Part shown: positions 357 to 8,594 of the stretch, in pieces
Position numbering within the stretch: the first letter of the stretch is position 1
Layout of the letters: the number at the start of each line of letters is the position of its first letter
Origin: an uncultured delta proteobacterium
GTDB taxonomy: Bacteria; Desulfobacterota; Binatia; UBA9968
Assembly (NCBI GenBank): GCA_963840855.1
Contig: CAWJBB010000062.1
Location: 1 to 64,000, forward strand
Reading direction: 5' to 3'
DNA: 64,000 nt
Program-made: the position numbers and the translations under genes
Notes under the pieces: model-generated
Seen by the model: the letters and a program-made list of their open reading frames with translations, nothing else
Databases searched by the model: none
Told to the model about the DNA's origin: nothing

Positions 357-372
357 CGCAAACTGCGGGCCA
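357..372 (-). promoter_or_regulatory. sigma54 -24/-12 promoter of pilA
   Basis: Minus strand reads TGGCCCGCAGTTTGCG (GG-N10-GC), upstream of pilA and next to a sigma54 activator gene. Confidence 0.8.
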
Positions 373-542: not shown

Positions 543-559
543 GTGACAAAATTTGTTAC
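543..559. promoter_or_regulatory. Candidate upstream activator site (enhancer) for the pilA sigma54 promoter
   Basis: Near-palindrome GTGACAAA-A-TTTGTTAC about 170-190 bp upstream of the -24 element, beyond the IHF site. Confidence 0.45.
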
Positions 560-2607
560 TCGGCAACCTGACCATCGCCGGTTAAATTCTGGCCTTTTCC
601 CAGGAGCTCGTACTTGTCCAGCCTGTGGCGCAGCGACCTGTAGTTTATACCGAGCAGCTCCGCGGCCCTTTTCTGCACCCCTTTGGCTCTCTTTAGAGCA
701 TCGACCAGAATGGCCCTCTCATGGGTCTCCAGTTCGGCGTCAAGGGACACCCCTTTGCTGAAAAAGTGGCCGGAATTGTTGCCGCCGGCGCCGTTATCGC
801 CGAGACCGGCAGTTTCCACTGCCACCGGCGGCAGATTATTCAACTGGGAGGGCAAATCTTCCTCGGTAATAATATTCCGGCTGGTGACCGCGACGGCATG
901 CTCCAGCACATTTTCCAGCTCACGGACGTTGCCAGGAAAACTATGATTCATAAGTCGCATCAGCGCGCCGCTGGATATTTCTTCAACCTGTTTGCCGTGG
1001 GACACCGCAAATTTGCGCAAAAAGTAGTGCGCCAACGCAGGAATGTCATCTTTGCGATTTTTGAGCGGCGGCAAGACCATTTGCACCACATTGAGCCGGT
1101 AGAACAAATCTTCGCGAAACCGGCATTCTTCCATTTCTTTGCGCAGGTCTTTATTGGACGCGGATATTACCCGGACATCGACTTTCACCTGCTTGCTGCC
1201 ACCAACAGGTGTGAAGCTCTTTTCCTGGAGAACCCGGAGCAACTTGACTTGAAGATGGAGCGGCAGTTCTGCCACTTCGTCAAGAAAAATGGTCCCCTGG
1301 TCGGCCTGCTTGAACAGGCCCGCATGGTCGGATACCGCGCCGGTGAAGGCGCCCCGCACATGGCCGAAAAGTTCGCTTTCGATGAGTGTTTCCGGAATTG
1401 CGCCGCAATTGACCGCTACAAAGGGTTTGTCTTGGCGCGCGCCGTTAAAGTGAATCGCTCGCGCCACCAGTTCCTTGCCGGTGCCGCTCTCGCCAGTGAT
1501 CAGCACGTTGGTGCTGCCGGCGGCCACTTTTTGAATGAGCTGATAAATCTTGTCGATGCCGCCGCCCTTTCCCACCACGCCTTCGAAGCGGAAGCCGGAG
1601 GAGGCCAAGCCGTCGGGCTCGCTATGCAGCTCAAACTCCCGCGCCCGGCGTAATTCTTCTTCGAGGCGAACTTTCTCTTCGGCTTCCTTTTGCTTCGTGA
1701 CGTCCTCGAAGATAGCCACATGGCCAATTAAACTGTCGCCGACGTTGCACAACGGCGCGAGGGTCAAGCGCAGTTGCTTTTGCCGTCCTTGAGAGGAGGT
1801 GAACGGAAACTCGTCCGGCACTACTTTGCCATGTTCGGCGCCATCAAAGCGGTACTTCAAACTAGGAAAGATTTCGTCGAGTCGTTTTCCCGTAACTATC
1901 GATTCCTGGAGGGAAGTCAGTTGTTGTGCCTGAGCGTTAAAGTAGTTGATGTATCCCCGATCATCGGTGATCGCTACGCCACCGCCCACCCCTTCCAACA
2001 AGGCATTTTTGAGCGAGTCCAATCGTTGATAGTCAACATGTTTCTCTTCCAGGAGTTTTTCCGCCACACCGAGCTTCCGCGCCAAGTGGCCACTGAGCCA
2101 CGCGATGACAAAATAACTGGCAATATTGAGCGCCACGGGCATCAAAAGTGGCCACGTTAGGGAGTTGACCCTGGCATTCCCATGCGCGCTGCTCAGAATA
2201 AGCAGCGCCGCGTAGCACCCGCTGGAAAATCCGGCGGTGATAAACGCGCCGCGGTGAAACAATAGAATCGCGCCGTTCATCACCGCCATATTGTAAAGAA
2301 ACGAAAACGGGCTGGTGATATCGCCGGTGATCCAGATAATACCGCTGATCAACAGCACGTCGAAGCCGATTTGCCCATGGGCAAACCAGTTGAGCTTCTG
2401 AACGCGGCTGAGAAACGCCATTGAGCCTAGGGAAATCACATAAGCGGCGCCGAGCGGAATGAGCAGGGTGTAGAAGAGGCGCGGTTCACTTTCGGTTCCG
2501 AAGAAATGGAAGAGCGCCGTGGCGCCGAGAAAGAAAGATAAAGTGACCACCCGCAGAAAGAGCAGCCACTTTATTTTCTCGATCAGATTGCTACGTTCGT
2601 CGTTCAT
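556..2607 (-). CDS. Membrane-bound sigma54 activator: PilS-like 6-TM domain + PAS fused to PilR-like AAA+ and Fis-type HTH
   Basis: Six hydrophobic segments with a PilS-like Q..FD...TG...SPF..LY stretch; PAS/PAC ending FEDVT; then GESGTGKE, GAFTGA, FLDEV and a C-terminal HTH (RAAELLGINYRSLRHRL). No HisKA, HATPase or REC domain. ATG at 2607 preferred over TTG at 2625. Confidence 0.9.
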   Translation of the reverse strand: MNDERSNLIEKIKWLLFLRVVTLSFFLGATALFHFFGTESEPRLFYTLLIPLGAAYVISLGSMAFLSRVQKLNWFAHGQIGFDVLLISGIIWITGDITSPFSFLYNMAVMNGAILLFHRGAFITAGFSSGCYAALLILSSAHGNARVNSLTWPLLMPVALNIASYFVIAWLSGHLARKLGVAEKLLEEKHVDYQRLDSLKNALLEGVGGGVAITDDRGYINYFNAQAQQLTSLQESIVTGKRLDEIFPSLKYRFDGAEHGKVVPDEFPFTSSQGRQKQLRLTLAPLCNVGDSLIGHVAIFEDVTKQKEAEEKVRLEEELRRAREFELHSEPDGLASSGFRFEGVVGKGGGIDKIYQLIQKVAAGSTNVLITGESGTGKELVARAIHFNGARQDKPFVAVNCGAIPETLIESELFGHVRGAFTGAVSDHAGLFKQADQGTIFLDEVAELPLHLQVKLLRVLQEKSFTPVGGSKQVKVDVRVISASNKDLRKEMEECRFREDLFYRLNVVQMVLPPLKNRKDDIPALAHYFLRKFAVSHGKQVEEISSGALMRLMNHSFPGNVRELENVLEHAVAVTSRNIITEEDLPSQLNNLPPVAVETAGLGDNGAGGNNSGHFFSKGVSLDAELETHERAILVDALKRAKGVQKRAAELLGINYRSLRHRLDKYELLGKGQNLTGDGQVAE

Positions 2608-2643
2608 GGGAAAGAGTCCCGCCAAGCGACACGTTGGATGGGC

Positions 2644-3864
2644 TTAATTAATCAACGATCCCAACTGGAAGATTGGCAGATACATGGCGATAACCAAGCC
2701 GCCCAGGATAACGCCCAAAAACACCATGATCATCGGTTCCATCAACGCGGTTAAATTTGTCACAGCATCATCGACTTCTTCTTCGTAAAGCTCGGCGACT
2801 TTTTTCAGCATGACGTCCAAGCCGCCGGTGGTTTCGCCCACCGCGACCATCTGGCAGACCATGGGCGGAAACACCTTGCTTTCCCTCAGAGGGTCGGCGA
2901 CAGTTCTGCCCTGGCTAATGCTGACTCGGCTTTCCATGATGGCCTTCTCAATGACCTTGTTGCCGGCGGTCCGGGCGGTAATCGCCAGCCCGTCCAGGAT
3001 TGGCACGCCCGAGCTTAGTAATATCGACATGTTTTGCGAGAAACGCGCCACCGCTACCTTGCGCAATAGATCGCCTATAATCGGCATTCTGAGCATCATC
3101 CGATCGATATGCATGCGCCCGGCGGGAGTCTTGTAGTAAAGCGAAATTGCCACGGCCACGCCGATCATGCTGCCAAAAATGAGATACCAATAAGCGACAA
3201 ATACGTTACTGATATTGATCGCGATTTGCGTCGGCGCCGGGAGGCCTTTACCCATGCTGCCATAAAGCTCGGCGAACACCGGGATGACAAAAATCATTAA
3301 GATAGAGACGACGATGACGGCTACGCCCACGATGCTGCTGGGGTAGATCATCGCGCCCTTGACCTTCCCCTTGAGCTTGTTCGCCTTTTCGATAAACACG
3401 GCGATTCGGTTCAAGATCGTATGCAGCGCGCCGCCCATTTCACCGGCTTCGACCATGTTGACGTAGAGATCGTCGAAAATTTTCGGGTGCTTTTTCAGCC
3501 CTTCGGCGAGGGTGGTGCCGCCTTCGACGTCTTTGCGAATGGCCAGCAACGTCCGGCGAAAAGTTTTGTTTTGGGTCTGCTCGCCCAAGATGCTCAGACA
3601 CTGCACGATGGGGAGTCCGGCATCGATCATCGCGGCGAATTGGCGGGTGAAGACGGCTACTTCTTTCGGCTTGACCGATTCGCCGAAGCCGGGAATCCTT
3701 ATTTCTTTCTCCATCCCCGCGCCCTTTTCGCGGATGCGGGTGGGAATGGGGCGAATACGCCGCTCGCGCAGTATCGCAAAAACGGCTTCCCGGCTGGAAG
3801 CCTCAATCTCGTCCCTTATGATTTTCCCCTGGGCGGTTTTACCTTCCCATAAAAATGTCGGCAT
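2644..3864 (-). CDS. pilC: Type IV pilus platform protein PilC
   Basis: T2SS-F family motifs FTRQFAAMIDAGLP, AMIYP, GETTGGLD, EPMIM, AMYLPIF. Confidence 0.95.
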   Translation of the reverse strand: MPTFLWEGKTAQGKIIRDEIEASSREAVFAILRERRIRPIPTRIREKGAGMEKEIRIPGFGESVKPKEVAVFTRQFAAMIDAGLPIVQCLSILGEQTQNKTFRRTLLAIRKDVEGGTTLAEGLKKHPKIFDDLYVNMVEAGEMGGALHTILNRIAVFIEKANKLKGKVKGAMIYPSSIVGVAVIVVSILMIFVIPVFAELYGSMGKGLPAPTQIAINISNVFVAYWYLIFGSMIGVAVAISLYYKTPAGRMHIDRMMLRMPIIGDLLRKVAVARFSQNMSILLSSGVPILDGLAITARTAGNKVIEKAIMESRVSISQGRTVADPLRESKVFPPMVCQMVAVGETTGGLDVMLKKVAELYEEEVDDAVTNLTALMEPMIMVFLGVILGGLVIAMYLPIFQLGSLIN

Positions 3865-3956: not shown

Positions 3957-5681
3957 TTACCCTACCGAGAAAACGGATCCGAAGCCCTTGTCGGCATCCG
4001 TCACTCGCAAAGTCTCGGCGATGGTCGTTAGGCCGGCTCGAACCTTGTTTAGAGCGCTCATTCGCAGCGTGCTCATCCCCAGTTTGACCGCTTCCCGCTT
4101 CAAATCGACGGTAGACGCGCCGCGTATAATCAGTTCCCTTATTGCCTCGTGCATAACCATGATTTCGTAAATCGCCAAACGTCCCTTATAGCCGGTCTCG
4201 TTGCAGTCGCCGCAGCCCCGGCCTTCAAACGTCGGGAAACCGGCGCTGACATCCGTAGGGTCAACTCCCAGATTGATCAACGCCTCCGGGTTGGTTTCCA
4301 CCGGTTCCTTGCACATCTCGCAAATCCTGCGCACCAACCTCTGTGCAGCGATAAGATTGATCGATGAGGTCAGCAGAAAGGTTTCAATCCCCATGTTGAT
4401 TAGCCGATCCACGGTGGACGGCGCGTCATTGGTGTGTAAAGTGCTGAGAACCAAATGGCCGGTGAGCGCTGCCTTGACCCCGATCTGTGCGGTTTCCAGG
4501 TCGCGCATTTCGCCGACCATGATGATATCGGGATCCTGGCGCAAGAAAGACCTCAGAGCCGCCGCGAAGGTTAAACCGATCTGTTCTCGCACCTGTACCT
4601 GATTAATACCCATGAGATTGTATTCCACCGGGTCCTCGGCCGTGGAAATATTGACGTCCGGTTTGTTGAGTTCCGAGAGCGCCGAATAAAGCGTTGTCGA
4701 CTTGCCGCTACCCGTCGGTCCTGTGATGAGGATCATGCCGTAGGGCTTATGGATCGCTTCCTGAAAGTCTGCCAGGGTTTGCGGGTCGAACCCGAGCTTG
4801 GCCATGTCGAGCTGGAGAGTAGACTTGTCCAAAAGCCGCATGACGACTTTTTCGCCGAACAACGTCGGCAGCACGGAAACACGAATATCGAGTTCACCGT
4901 TCATGCCCATTTTGAGCTTGATGCGTCCATCCTGAGTCAGCCGGCGCTCCGCAATATCCAGGCCGGCCATGACTTTCAGGCGCGAGACCAGCGGATTTTT
5001 GAGCCGCATCGGCGGGCTCATGATTTCATGAAGCACGCCATCGACGCGGAAGCGCACGCGAAACGCCTTTTCATAGGGCTCAATATGAATATCGCTGGCG
5101 CGACGTTTGGCGGCGTCGGCGAGGATGGCATTGACCAGCGTGACCACCGGCGCTTCCATGGTGGCCTGCTGCAGCTCTTGCAGATTGATGTCGTCCGGCT
5201 CATGGATGATTTCCACGTCGGAGTCACCAAACTTTTTGAGCACGTCGTCATAACTGACGCCGCCGAAGCGATGCTCCAGAACCTTCTTAATGGCCGATGC
5301 TGATGCAGCGACGACCCGAACGCCATAGCCGGTAATAAATTTGACTTCATTGATCGCCACCCGTTCGGTGGGATCCGCCATGGCCACGGTAAGGTTAGAA
5401 CCCAGGAGCTTTATCGGAATGATTTGGTGTTTCTGCACCAGATGGGCAGGGACTAAGTTGAAAACCGAATCCTCAATCTCGGCGGGATTTAGTTCGACTT
5501 TCTCGATGCCGAACTGCGCGGCGAGGAATTCCGTTAAGGCGTCCTCGGTGGTGAAGCCGAGCTTGACCAATTCCTTGGGGACGCTCGACCCGTTTTCCCG
5601 TTCCTTGTCTTGTGCTTGGGTAAGCTGCTCGCGACTGACGATGCCGCCGCGAACCAACAGCTCTGCGATGCGCGGTTCCAT
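3957..5681 (-). CDS. pilB: Type IV pilus assembly ATPase PilB
   Basis: ASDIHIEP, Walker A GPTGSGKST, LRQDPDIIMVGE, tetracysteine CEMC/CGDC, degenerate N-terminal MshEN-like segment. Confidence 0.95.
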   Translation of the reverse strand: MEPRIAELLVRGGIVSREQLTQAQDKERENGSSVPKELVKLGFTTEDALTEFLAAQFGIEKVELNPAEIEDSVFNLVPAHLVQKHQIIPIKLLGSNLTVAMADPTERVAINEVKFITGYGVRVVAASASAIKKVLEHRFGGVSYDDVLKKFGDSDVEIIHEPDDINLQELQQATMEAPVVTLVNAILADAAKRRASDIHIEPYEKAFRVRFRVDGVLHEIMSPPMRLKNPLVSRLKVMAGLDIAERRLTQDGRIKLKMGMNGELDIRVSVLPTLFGEKVVMRLLDKSTLQLDMAKLGFDPQTLADFQEAIHKPYGMILITGPTGSGKSTTLYSALSELNKPDVNISTAEDPVEYNLMGINQVQVREQIGLTFAAALRSFLRQDPDIIMVGEMRDLETAQIGVKAALTGHLVLSTLHTNDAPSTVDRLINMGIETFLLTSSINLIAAQRLVRRICEMCKEPVETNPEALINLGVDPTDVSAGFPTFEGRGCGDCNETGYKGRLAIYEIMVMHEAIRELIIRGASTVDLKREAVKLGMSTLRMSALNKVRAGLTTIAETLRVTDADKGFGSVFSVG

Positions 5682-5798: not shown

Positions 5799-8520
5799 TC
5801 AACGTTTTTTTCCTAACACCGCCTGGGCGGCCGCCAATTTGGCGATGGGCACGCGAAACGGCGAGCAACTTACGTAATCCAGGCCGATTTTGTGACAAAA
5901 ACGCACAGATTCCGGGTCACCCCCATGCTCACCGCAAATCCCAATTTCGAGACGTTTGTGGGTTTTTCGGCCTTTGCCAACGGCAATCCGCATCAACGCG
6001 CCGACGCCCTCTTGATCGATGCTAACAAATGGATCCTGGGGCAAAAGACCGTCCATAACATAGCTGGGCAGAAACTTACCCGCATCGTCGCGCGACAGCC
6101 CCAAGCAGGTCTGGGTCAAGTCATTAGTGCCAAAAGAGAAAAACTCAGCTTCCTGGGCAATTTCGTCGGCCACGAGACAGGCCCGCGGCAGCTCGATCAT
6201 CGTCCCGACGAGATAACGGACTTTAACTCCGTAGAACCTCATGGTTGCTTGCGCCGTCTGTTCCACGATGTTTCTTTGCGCGCGTAGCTCTTCCCGCGAT
6301 CCAACCAGCGGAATCATTACTTCGGGAAAGGGATTTTTCCCCTCACGGCGCAGCTCACAAGCAGCTTCAAAGATCGCCCTCACCTGCATTTCGGTAATCT
6401 CGGGATAAGAAATTCCCAGCCGGCAACCACGGTGTCCGAGCATCGGGTTGAATTCCTGGAGCACTTTGACTTTGTCCCGAAGCGTTTGCACAGGCACGCG
6501 CATCACATGTGCCAGCTTTAGGATCTCCTCCTCGCGGCTCGGAAGAAACTCGTGAAGCGGCGGATCGAGGGTCCGGATCGTTACCGGCAAACCACCCATA
6601 ATCTCAAGAATTTCCTTGAAGTCTTGTTTTTGCATAGGCAAGAGCTTGGCCAACGCACGCCTGCGCCCGGCTTCGTCGTCCGCCAAAATCATTTCGCGCA
6701 CCGCCTGGATGCGATCGCCCTGAAAAAACATATGCTCGGTGCGGCACAGCCCGATGCCTTCGGCGCCGAACGCCCTGGCGACTACCGCTTGGTCGGGCTG
6801 ATCGGTATTCGTGCGCACCCCCAGCTTGCGGATTTCATCGGCCCATTTCATAAGCTTAGAAAATTGTTGGAAGACTCGGGATTTTCCGACTTCACGGGTT
6901 TTGCCGAGTAGCACCTGCACCACTTCCGAGGGCAATGTGCGAATTTCCCCCGCCATGACTTCACCGGTACTACCGTCCAGCGACAACCAATCGCCTTCCT
7001 TTGAAATGGTCTCGCCCACATGCATCGTGCGCGCTGCGTAATCGATGTTGAGCGTTTCGCATCCGGCGACGCAAACCTTTCCCATTTGGCGTGCCACCAG
7101 CGCTGCGTGTGAGGTCATGCCCCCGCGGGCGGTGAGAATTCCCTCCGCGGCTTCCATGCCGCGAATATCGTCGGGGCTTGTCTCCACACGACAGAGCAAG
7201 ACACGCTCCCCATTTTTCTTCCAAGCCACCGCGTCTTCGGCGTGAAACACGATGCGCCCACTGGCGGCGCCGGGACCCGCCGGCAAGCCCCGCGCCAGAA
7301 TGCGCCCCTGCTTGGCCGCCTGTTCCTTATCGTGACTGTCGAAAATGGGCCGCAGCAGTTGATTCAGATGATCCGCTTCGATGCGTAGGAGAGCTTCTTT
7401 CCTGCTTATGATTCTCTCCTCTACCATATCGATGGCGATACGCACCGCGGCAAATCCGGTGCGTTTAGCGGCCCTGGTCTGGAGCATCCAGAGTTTATTG
7501 CCCTCGATGGTAAACTCGATATCCTGCATCTCTTTGTAATGGTTCTCGAGAATCCTACAGACTCTTTTGAGTTCCATGTACGCCCTCGGCATCAGCAATT
7601 CGAGCTCGGCGATAGGCTTCGGCGTGCGGATTCCGGCGACTACGTCTTCTCCCTGCGCTTCGATAAGAAACTCGCCGTAGAATTGCTTTCTCGCCGGTGG
7701 CCGGATTGCGTGTGAAGGCCACCCCGGTGGCGCACTTTTCTCCGAGATTGCCAAACACCATTGCCTGCACGTTTACCGCCGTTCCCCAGGAATGTGGAAT
7801 CTGGTAGAGCTGCCGATACGCGATGGCTCGGTCGTTGTTCCAGGAACCCAACACCGCCCCAATGGCACCCCAGAGCTGATCAAACGGATCCTCGGGAAAA
7901 TCTTTTCCTGACCGGTTTTTTACCTCGGCTTTGAAATCCGCGACCAACTCTTTAAGATCTTCCGCATTGAGGTCCGTATCGAAACGCACCCCGCGGCTTT
8001 TCTTCTTCCGTTCAAGGATGGTTTCGAACGGATCGCTCTCGGTCTTATCCCGTGGCTTGACTCCCAAGACAACATCGGCGTACATGTGCACGAAGCGCCG
8101 GTAGGAATCATAGGCAAAGCGCGCGTTCTGGGAGCGGTGAATGAGCCCCTGGACCGTGCGGTCATTAAGACCCAGATTAAGCACCGTATCCATCATTCCG
8201 GGCATCGACTCCCGCGCTCCTGAGCGAACTGAAACTAACAAGGGATCGTCGTAGTCGCCGAAGCGGCGCCGGAGAATCTTCTCGATTCTGGCGAGTGAAG
8301 CCAGCAGATTTTTTTCCAGTGCTTTGGGATAGCGGCGATCATGAGCATAATAAAAAGTGCAAACTTCCGTAGTCAGCGTAAACCCCGGCGGCACGGGCGC
8401 ACCAATGCGGGTCATTTCATGCAGACCCGCGCCTTTGCCTCCAAGGAGCTCGCGCATTTCCGCTTTGCCCTCGGCTTTGCCGCCGCCAAAAAAATAAATG
8501 TACCTTTTCTTATTGCGCAT
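5799..8520 (-). pseudogene. ppdK: Pyruvate, phosphate dikinase split by a single-base frameshift at about 7687-7689 (real lesion or sequencing error)
   Basis: N-part has LGGKGA and [16 protein letters not shown]; C-part has [34 protein letters not shown]. Deleting one A in GAG AAA G CAA TTC restores [11 protein letters not shown]. Confidence 0.9.
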
Positions 8521-8594
8521 GATCGCCAATCCTTCGGTAAACGTGATTTCGCGGGACGCGAGCGCTGGCGCGACCGGATTGCCTTATTGCTTGT

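Follow-up and report, generated by a model that had tools for sequence, protein, structure and literature searches.

A conserved and apparently undescribed fusion of PilS-type and PilR-type halves beside pilA in an uncultured member of the Binatia

The stretch of DNA considered here (the window) is 64,000 nucleotides long. It covers positions 1 to 64,000 of the forward strand of contig CAWJBB010000062.1, from the draft genome of an uncultured delta proteobacterium (GTDB lineage Bacteria; Desulfobacterota; Binatia; UBA9968; GenBank assembly GCA_963840855.1). Between pilC and pilA it carries one gene for a regulator of 683 amino acids (P0001), in the place of the pilS-pilR pair. We argue that this is a real, conserved and apparently undescribed variant of the PilS-PilR system. 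Judged by homology, the regulator joins the PilS sensor half in frame to the PilR output half. Having lost both the kinase core and the receiver, it cannot carry out phosphotransfer. In this soil bacterium the pilin gene is probably switched on from the membrane without a phosphorylation step. That a membrane-tethered fused protein activates pilA through sigma-54 we regard as likely. The fuller reading, in which the regulator is a membrane-integral one-component sigma-54 activator of pilA that arose by PilS-PilR fusion and is subject to pilin feedback, is in our judgement probable.

Architecture of the regulator

A preliminary description, made from the sequence alone, placed a single open reading frame (ORF) in the pilS-pilR slot. 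It described transmembrane (TM) helices followed by a PAS domain, an AAA+ domain and a helix-turn-helix (HTH), with no H-box, HATPase or receiver. The coordinates and the Pfam scan agree with both statements. The gene runs from 556 to 2607 on the reverse strand, pilC lies at 2644-3864 and pilA starts at 176 (Table 1). The longest ORF is slightly larger (556..2625, same strand) and opens with TTG; the ATG at 2607 gives 683 residues, which is the commonest length among the relatives. The membrane domain scores 51.2 bits against a cut-off of 27 for its family. Scanned over all 683 residues the protein has zero matches to HisKA, HATPase_c or Response_reg at E <= 0.01. The strings that had been quoted are all in the translation: FEDVTKQKEAEEKVRLEEELRRAR, LFLRVV (TM1, with R19), GFDVLL (TM3, with D83), Walker A (GESGTGKE), GAFTGA (residues 419-424) and the DE of Walker B.

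Table 1. Features of the pil locus in the window
Feature	Positions	Strand	Basis
pilA, 5' part, 58 codons	3..176	-	N_methyl; aligned with pilins of four related loci; runs off the contig start
Sigma-54-type promoter TGGCCC-N5-TTGCG (GG-N10-GC), TGGCCCGCAGTTTGCG	357..372	-	About 180 nt upstream of the pilA ATG
Candidate activator site AAATTTTGTCAC	543..554	-	2 nt past the regulator stop codon
Fused PilS-PilR gene, P0001, 683 aa	556..2607	-	ORF list, translation, Pfam, relatives of 677-701 aa
Fis-type HTH (HTH_8, PF02954), residues 626-666	610..732	-	E 1e-11
AAA+ lid (AAA_lid_14, PF25601), residues 517-592	832..1059	-	E 9.1e-25
Sigma-54 AAA+ domain (Sigma54_activat, PF00158), residues 346-510	1078..1572	-	E 1.8e-70; Walker A, GAFTGA, Walker B
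Fusion junction, residues 331-338	1594..1617	-	Sole stretch aligning to neither PilS nor PilR
Charged helix after PAS, residues 304-323 (FEDVTKQKEAEEKVRLEEELRRAR at 300-323)	1639..1698	-	Helix in the model; BLASTP to canonical PilS runs through residue 330
PAS domain, residues 201-307	1687..2007	-	PAS_9, PAS and PAS_4 matches; PAS fold in the model, pLDDT 77-88
PilS-type six-helix membrane domain, residues 4-185	2053..2598	-	PF25323 (6TM_PilS), E 1.6e-13; same coordinates in the genome profile search
pilC, platform protein	2644..3864	-	T2SSF, E 7.8e-66; 36 nt upstream of the regulator
pilB, assembly ATPase	3957..5681	-	T2SSE, E 1e-143, plus MshEN

An AlphaFold2 model of the regulator has a mean predicted local distance difference test score (pLDDT) of 78.6 and a predicted template-modelling score (pTM) of 0.42. 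It contains helices at 2-206, a PAS fold at 210-302, a helix at 304-323, the AAA+ fold and the HTH. Confidence is low at 323-337, and 592-619 is disordered. No solved structure matches residues 1-322 by sequence. The count of six membrane helices comes from the Pfam family and the polar turns; the model merges two helices into one at 100-142. The polar turns alternate between basic (SRVQK, HRG, ARK) and acidic or neutral (GTESE, GDITS). This alternation fits a six-helix topology with both termini inside, which would place the PAS, AAA+ and HTH domains in the cytoplasm. By its alignment to canonical PilS, the charged helix at 304-323 is a homologue of the signalling helix that precedes the H-box in PilS.

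The catalytic positions are kept in the fused proteins that were compared. G372-K378, G419-A424, D443-E444, R498, R504 and R562 are invariant across 39 fused proteins, and we take these residues to be Walker A, GAFTGA, Walker B, the arginine fingers and sensor II. The membrane domain has invariant residues as well. R19, D83, G95, S99 and P100 are the same in all 39.

Conservation of the fused layout and origin of its halves

One can imagine that the regulator gene is an assembly collapse, a private deletion or the decaying pseudogene of a former pilS-pilR pair. The genome is a draft with an estimated contamination of 8.27%, a neighbouring gene is frameshifted, and two relatives have interrupted copies of the regulator. 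The preliminary description had itself named separate pilS and pilR genes in close relatives as the finding that would speak against a fusion. Such relatives were sought and the same fusion was found. Residues 1-340 were used as the query of a word-indexed search; of the 8000 candidates that were scored, 647 proteins reached E <= 1e-3. Among the matches listed, all 120 relatives (60-97% identity) have PF25323 together with PF00158, and 115 of the 120 have the lid and the HTH too. The remaining 5 are short (444-574 aa). HisKA, HATPase_c (PF02518) and REC occur in 0/120 of these listed relatives. A profile built from seven divergent fused proteins again found the fused layout in 120/120 of the matches listed.

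The genomes of the same class tell the same story at the level of loci. The membrane-plus-PAS part is matched in 26 of 61 of them, counting the regulator's own genome. Loci were fetched from 20 of the 25 other matching genomes. G342 and four genomes of the same family were left out; G291, which belongs to these four, has a fused regulator. The membrane and AAA+ parts lie in one frame in 18 of the 20 loci, and a kinase match is found in none of the 20. Of the other two, one is split by an in-frame stop and one is cut by the end of its contig. In the split copy (L084, G309:C17:243-2743) a TAA parts the membrane domain (164 aa) from the remainder (523 aa). The regulator of another relative (L007:6001-8049, on a 1.2 Mb contig) is out of frame at about residues 36-125, with three stops, after which the frame is restored. 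This copy has either paired indel errors of long-read assembly or a break in TM1-TM4. Two genomes of the class have much longer open frames around the membrane-plus-PAS match (1493 aa at G331:C114:49239-50156 and 1081 aa at G342:C175:4999-5937). These could hold extra domains or a long stop-free stretch upstream.

The DNA of the window itself can be checked in the same way. The junction at 1594-1617 is bridged by contigs of three DNA runs from three studies, with 0 to 5 differences and no joint, so the coverage across the junction that the preliminary description had asked about speaks for an uncollapsed gene. One contig from an RNA library covers 1510-1659 and bridges the junction too; contigs do not show transcription. 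The same junction recurs in hundreds of proteins from many sources, megabase contigs included, the ORF is intact and its catalytic motifs are all invariant. The layout of the relatives, the class loci and the bridging contigs contradict an assembly collapse, which we reject. We consider an artefact, a private deletion or a pseudogene extremely improbable. The fusion is genuine and conserved.

The fused layout is found in hundreds of database proteins, under the names PilR or 'sigma-54 interacting regulator', and uncultured bacteria of soils and sediments commonly carry members of the family. Some divergent members sit on contigs of 1.0 to 5.5 Mb. The metagenome-assembled genomes (MAGs) that carry divergent fused proteins are labelled Binatia, Deltaproteobacteria, Thermodesulfobacteriota, Acidoferrales, Methylomirabilota, Margulisiibacteriota and Verrucomicrobiae, labels in which binning errors are possible. 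The MAGs behind four fused proteins or loci (L005 on DATMAM010000004.1, P0425, P0460 and P0497) bear the labels Acidiferrales/Acidoferrales, Margulisiibacteriota, Methylomirabilota or Verrucomicrobiae. These cases reflect either horizontal spread or mislabelled bins.

It is worth considering where each half came from. The membrane domain alone was searched exhaustively against 1.84 billion representatives, with 711 matches at E <= 1e-3. Among the best 150 of the 711, 78 are at least 500 aa long, and they comprise 69 with a kinase core, 8 with an AAA+ half and 1 with neither. Pfam was run on 24 of those. Every one of the eight that are at least 637 aa long is fused, and all 16 of 558-623 aa are kinases with the layout 6TM-PAS-HisKA-HATPase_c. 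The regulator shares R19, Q79, D83, T94-G95, S99, F101 and Y105 with the 69 kinases. R19 is found in 68/69 canonical kinases and 9/9 fused forms, and D83 in 65/69 (plus 4 with E) and 9/9. The corresponding counts are 68/69 and 7/9 for Q79, 66/69 and 8/9 for T94, 67/69 and 9/9 for G95, and 66/69 and 9/9 for S99. The membrane-plus-PAS part is most closely related to PilS-type 6TM-PAS kinases, several of them named PilS in their source, and not to RegB-type kinases. The homology of the membrane domain to PilS is borne out by the family score, the 69 kinases among the 78 full-length matches and the presence of R19 and D83 in both forms.

The comparator was L033, a canonical pilS-pilR-pilA locus that belongs to a different family of the phylum. 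Residues 52-330 of the regulator align to residues 50-329 of its PilS (29% identity, E 2e-29, BLASTP). The alignment stops at the start of the dimerisation and histidine phosphotransfer (DHp) helix, about 10 residues before the H-box. Residues 339-666 align to residues 152-467 of its PilR (52% identity, E 2e-111, BLASTP), beginning past the PilR receiver and linker and just ahead of the AAA+ domain. The best paralogue in the genome gives 2.4e-90, against 6.9e-104 for the L033 PilR.

Two quick trees were made, both with midpoint rooting and with SH-aLRT (Shimodaira-Hasegawa-like approximate likelihood ratio test) as the only support. The AAA+-to-HTH tree has 51 rows: 9 fused forms, 30 other activators of the genome, 3 PilR encoded next to pilS and 9 best matches from five other genomes. 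An adjacent activator was found in 3 of the 8 canonical pilS loci that were fetched. The best matches served as further PilR-like rows and their neighbours were checked for pilin genes. Eight of the nine fused forms make up one clade (SH-aLRT 99). It lies inside a group of 15 rows (SH-aLRT 83) with two of the pilS-adjacent PilR and a clade of activators, two of which have pilin genes after them. The genome's 30 other activators all fall outside this group. The output half is PilR-like by identity and probably also by tree position, in line with the preliminary description.

In L033 pilS and pilR are adjacent and co-oriented, so one in-frame deletion of about 1.1 kb could yield the regulator gene. 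Such a deletion, we infer, would have started in the DHp coding region and extended through that of the receiver linker.

The ninth fused form (P0149, 637 aa) does not follow the others. In the AAA+-to-HTH tree it groups with PilR-like proteins (support 95). In the membrane-plus-PAS tree (83 rows) 12 of 13 fused rows fall on one side of a branch with SH-aLRT 97, and P0149 is among the canonical kinases. It has one close fused relative on a different contig (P0272, 87% identity). The other 118 matches listed for it comprise 117 with HisKA and one, P0370, that is fused at 38% identity; source names among its matches are Syntrophaceae and Deltaproteobacteria. From the end of PAS to the start of AAA+ there are about 12 residues in P0149 versus about 35 in the regulator of the window. 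Both halves, the junction and the listed matches of P0149 thus point to a second, younger and independent fusion. It is probable, from these comparisons, that the P0149 lineage made the same fusion on its own. The apparent recurrence means that a two-component pair can shrink to one component by a single deletion, which would span the 3' end of pilS and the 5' end of pilR.

One could suppose that a separate canonical PilS is encoded elsewhere in the genome. None was found. The only other match to PF25323 in the genome is weak and below the cut-off, and it is a HisKA_3 kinase, so this candidate was rejected.

Proposed control of pilA from the membrane

The likely target lies just downstream of the regulator gene. 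A GG-N10-GC element stands 190-206 nt past the regulator stop codon in 7/7 loci, even where the regulator has just 55-63% identity and the flanking DNA cannot be aligned. The genome encodes sigma-54 (rpoN, on contig C68). Of 6 non-redundant loci, 5 carry TTGTCAC in the interval from stop codon to promoter, and TTGTCAA stands there in the sixth. Sites of the form TGTCA[CA] number 8, against a shuffle mean of 1.09, and 0/2000 shuffles reach 8. A weaker candidate site, TGTCAT, is at 489-494 in the window. TTGTCAC appears to resemble the TGTC-containing PilR sites of P. aeruginosa.

We propose the following scenario. The regulator would bind TTGTCAC-type sites just downstream of its own stop codon, its AAA+ domains would assemble into a ring at the membrane, and this ring would open the sigma-54 promoter of pilA. 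Unassembled pilin in the inner membrane would bind the membrane domain and lower this activity, giving negative feedback on pilin supply. Inhibition might work by holding the AAA+ domains as an inactive pair, or by hindering the sideways association of the membrane domains. The signal might likewise be transmitted by a helical relay through 304-323, or by control over sideways association. The charged helix is conserved in the regulator's subfamily. Among divergent members the linker between PAS and AAA+ is variable, which is a poor fit to a rigid helical relay. Variable and often low-complexity linkers, together with the low model confidence at 323-337, favour control of sideways association.

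The pilin step rests on analogy. In P. aeruginosa, according to the accessible parts of PMC6058289, PMC7196804 and PMC13170266, inner-membrane pilin binds PilS, which turns to phosphatase mode, and PilR is shut off. In the fused regulator, which has no phosphotransfer module, such a pilin signal would need to work directly on the assembly of the AAA+ domains. R19 is about five residues into TM1 from the cytoplasmic face, and E5 of pilin is four residues into its helix from the same face. A contact between R19 and pilin E5 is therefore geometrically possible. The preliminary description had pointed to such a contact in P. aeruginosa, where a TM1 Arg of PilS is implicated in touching pilin E5. 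We put forward pilin sensing by the membrane domain tentatively, as a proposal that comes close to being probable. More specifically, the PilS module might itself gate, within the membrane plane, how the sigma-54 AAA+ ring assembles, turning pilin occupancy into transcription, and might have evolved to do so at least twice. This we offer as a possibility that is somewhat less probable than not.

It must be noted that several points weigh against the scenario as a whole. With this query 35/61 genomes of the class gave no match; the gene is therefore not found throughout the lineage. Copies are interrupted in two relatives, L007 and L084. The grouping with PilR is only moderately supported (83) in a quick midpoint-rooted tree. 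The TGTCA[CA] pattern was picked after the sequences had been inspected. The PAS-AAA+ linker varies in length and composition; it is of low complexity in P0139 and P0148, and in P0149 it is the short one given above. PF25323 is also present in sensors of other signals, namely RegB and GrtK, in the accessible text of PMC12918730. Because the family is shared with these sensors, homology does not fix the ligand.

This last point leads to a different explanation. The protein may be a fused activator of pilA whose membrane domain reads some other signal of the membrane or envelope, such as redox state, a small molecule or membrane tension, or merely anchors the protein and leaves the PAS domain as the true sensor. 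The PAS domain is kept in all fused forms examined, and in the accessible parts of PMC6058289 and PMC7196804 the binding of pilin by PilS is documented for P. aeruginosa only. However, the closest kin of the membrane-plus-PAS part are the PilS-type and not the RegB-type kinases, the gene stays beside pilA, and the residues conserved across PilS membrane domains are unchanged. We think that another signal is unlikely, and less so than the remaining alternative.

That alternative is an activator that assembles constitutively and is controlled by a separate partner protein, with the PilS-derived half as a docking platform. Receiver-less activators under partner proteins are well known; PspA controls PspF and NifL controls NifA. 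The flexible and variable linker between PAS and AAA+ would suit such an arrangement. On the other hand there is no conserved extra gene between pilC and pilA in the window, L005 or L007, and the membrane and PAS parts are conserved beyond what an anchor needs, as the five invariant membrane residues show. Control by a partner is in our view very unlikely.

Relation to known systems and neighbouring genes

The obvious comparison is to PilS-PilR of Pseudomonas aeruginosa, which is also found in Geobacter, Myxococcus, Kingella and Xanthomonas. The regulator is like this pair in its six-helix domain, conserved residues and PAS domain, in an AAA+/HTH output with 52% identity to the L033 PilR, whose gene sits between pilS and pilA, and in its sigma-54 pilA promoter target and its place beside pilA. 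It differs in having no DHp or H-box, no ATP-binding kinase domain and no receiver, and in its membrane-tethered output. Lacking all of these, it can act neither as a kinase nor as a phosphatase. It has the membrane domain and PAS of a PilS without the H-box and HATPase_c, and the GAFTGA AAA+ domain and Fis-type HTH of a PilR without the receiver. Since these defining kinase and receiver features fail, the regulator should not be filed as either. It has the features of a sigma-54 activator: its motifs are intact, sigma-54 is encoded and there is a -24/-12 promoter at a plausible target.

Cytoplasmic one-component activators with PAS, GAF or V4R sensors (NifA, TyrR, PrdR, DmpR/XylR, NorR) also join a sensor directly to AAA+/HTH and need no phosphorylation. 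These are soluble, whereas the regulator begins with six PilS-type membrane helices. Its best NCBIfam matches are PrdR and NifA, with all scores below the equivalog cut-offs, and its best sequence match in the PDB is NifA (9qq6).

A single chain that spans the membrane and binds DNA is familiar from ToxR, CadC and TcpP, which control transcription in this way. The likeness is membrane-based transcription control by one polypeptide. They differ in their unrelated sequence, single membrane helix, OmpR-type winged helix and sigma-70 promoters, and they have no AAA+ ring. On sequence grounds the regulator is a functional analogue of this type and not a member of it.

The charged helix between the regulatory part and the AAA+ domain recalls NtrC1/DctD, and PDB 1ny5 is among the structure-sequence matches of the regulator. 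In the NtrC1 literature the helical linker holds the AAA+ domains as an inactive pair. By analogy, the helix at 304-323 could hold the AAA+ domains of the regulator in such a pair. It differs in being derived from PilS and not from a receiver linker, in being followed by a low-confidence stretch of about 25 residues, and in not being conserved in the divergent fused lineages.

RegB and the ammonia sensor GrtK of Burkholderia glumae share the PF25323 domain (in the accessible text of PMC12918730). They differ from the regulator in being histidine kinases with receiver partners and other signals; the regulator's nearest kin are PilS-type 6TM-PAS kinases.

The preliminary description knew of no account of this layout, and a full-text literature search turned up no publication of it. 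In the full-text literature, with subscription journals largely outside, no account of a sigma-54 activator that carries a PilS-type membrane domain came to light, and likewise none of any membrane-integral enhancer-binding protein. If our reading is true this would be the first membrane-integral enhancer-binding protein, and the sigma-54 activators would extend to proteins of this kind. This raises the question of how a six-fold ATPase ring is made from membrane-tethered subunits and how DNA is delivered to the ring. The protein would act beside the gene that encodes it, on the promoter that follows directly. The regulator would also offer a single chain in which to study how PilS senses the pilin pool and how its membrane domain passes the signal of pilin binding on across the membrane. 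The signal must reach the output within one polypeptide and there is no balance of kinase and phosphatase, so one protein and one promoter could report on it. Direct gating would also have to be favourable enough to arise at least twice from separate pilS-pilR pairs.

The order pilB-pilC-regulator-pilA is also found in L005 and L007. The leader of pilA in the window is MDKLRLRSQSG and the mature N-terminus is FTLIE. Downstream of pilA in L007 (L007:8902-12867) are genes for a YfhO-like membrane protein (813 aa), an S-adenosylmethionine (SAM) methyltransferase and a family-2 glycosyltransferase, and their products may modify pilin. Upstream of pilB in the window the gene for pyruvate phosphate dikinase is in two overlapping frames on the reverse strand (5799-7754 and 7555-8529, together spanning 5799-8529). 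The same gene in L005 and L007 is a single ORF of 916-927 aa. The split frame is a frameshift that comes either from an assembly error or from a broken gene.

Elsewhere in the genome there are three near-identical genes for sigma-54 activators, at C24:77199-77699 (L046), C90:32655-33155 (L047) and C23:8814-9314 (L048). The branch lengths among them in the AAA+-to-HTH tree are 0 to 0.0025. A recent repeat, a mobile element or redundant contigs could account for them.

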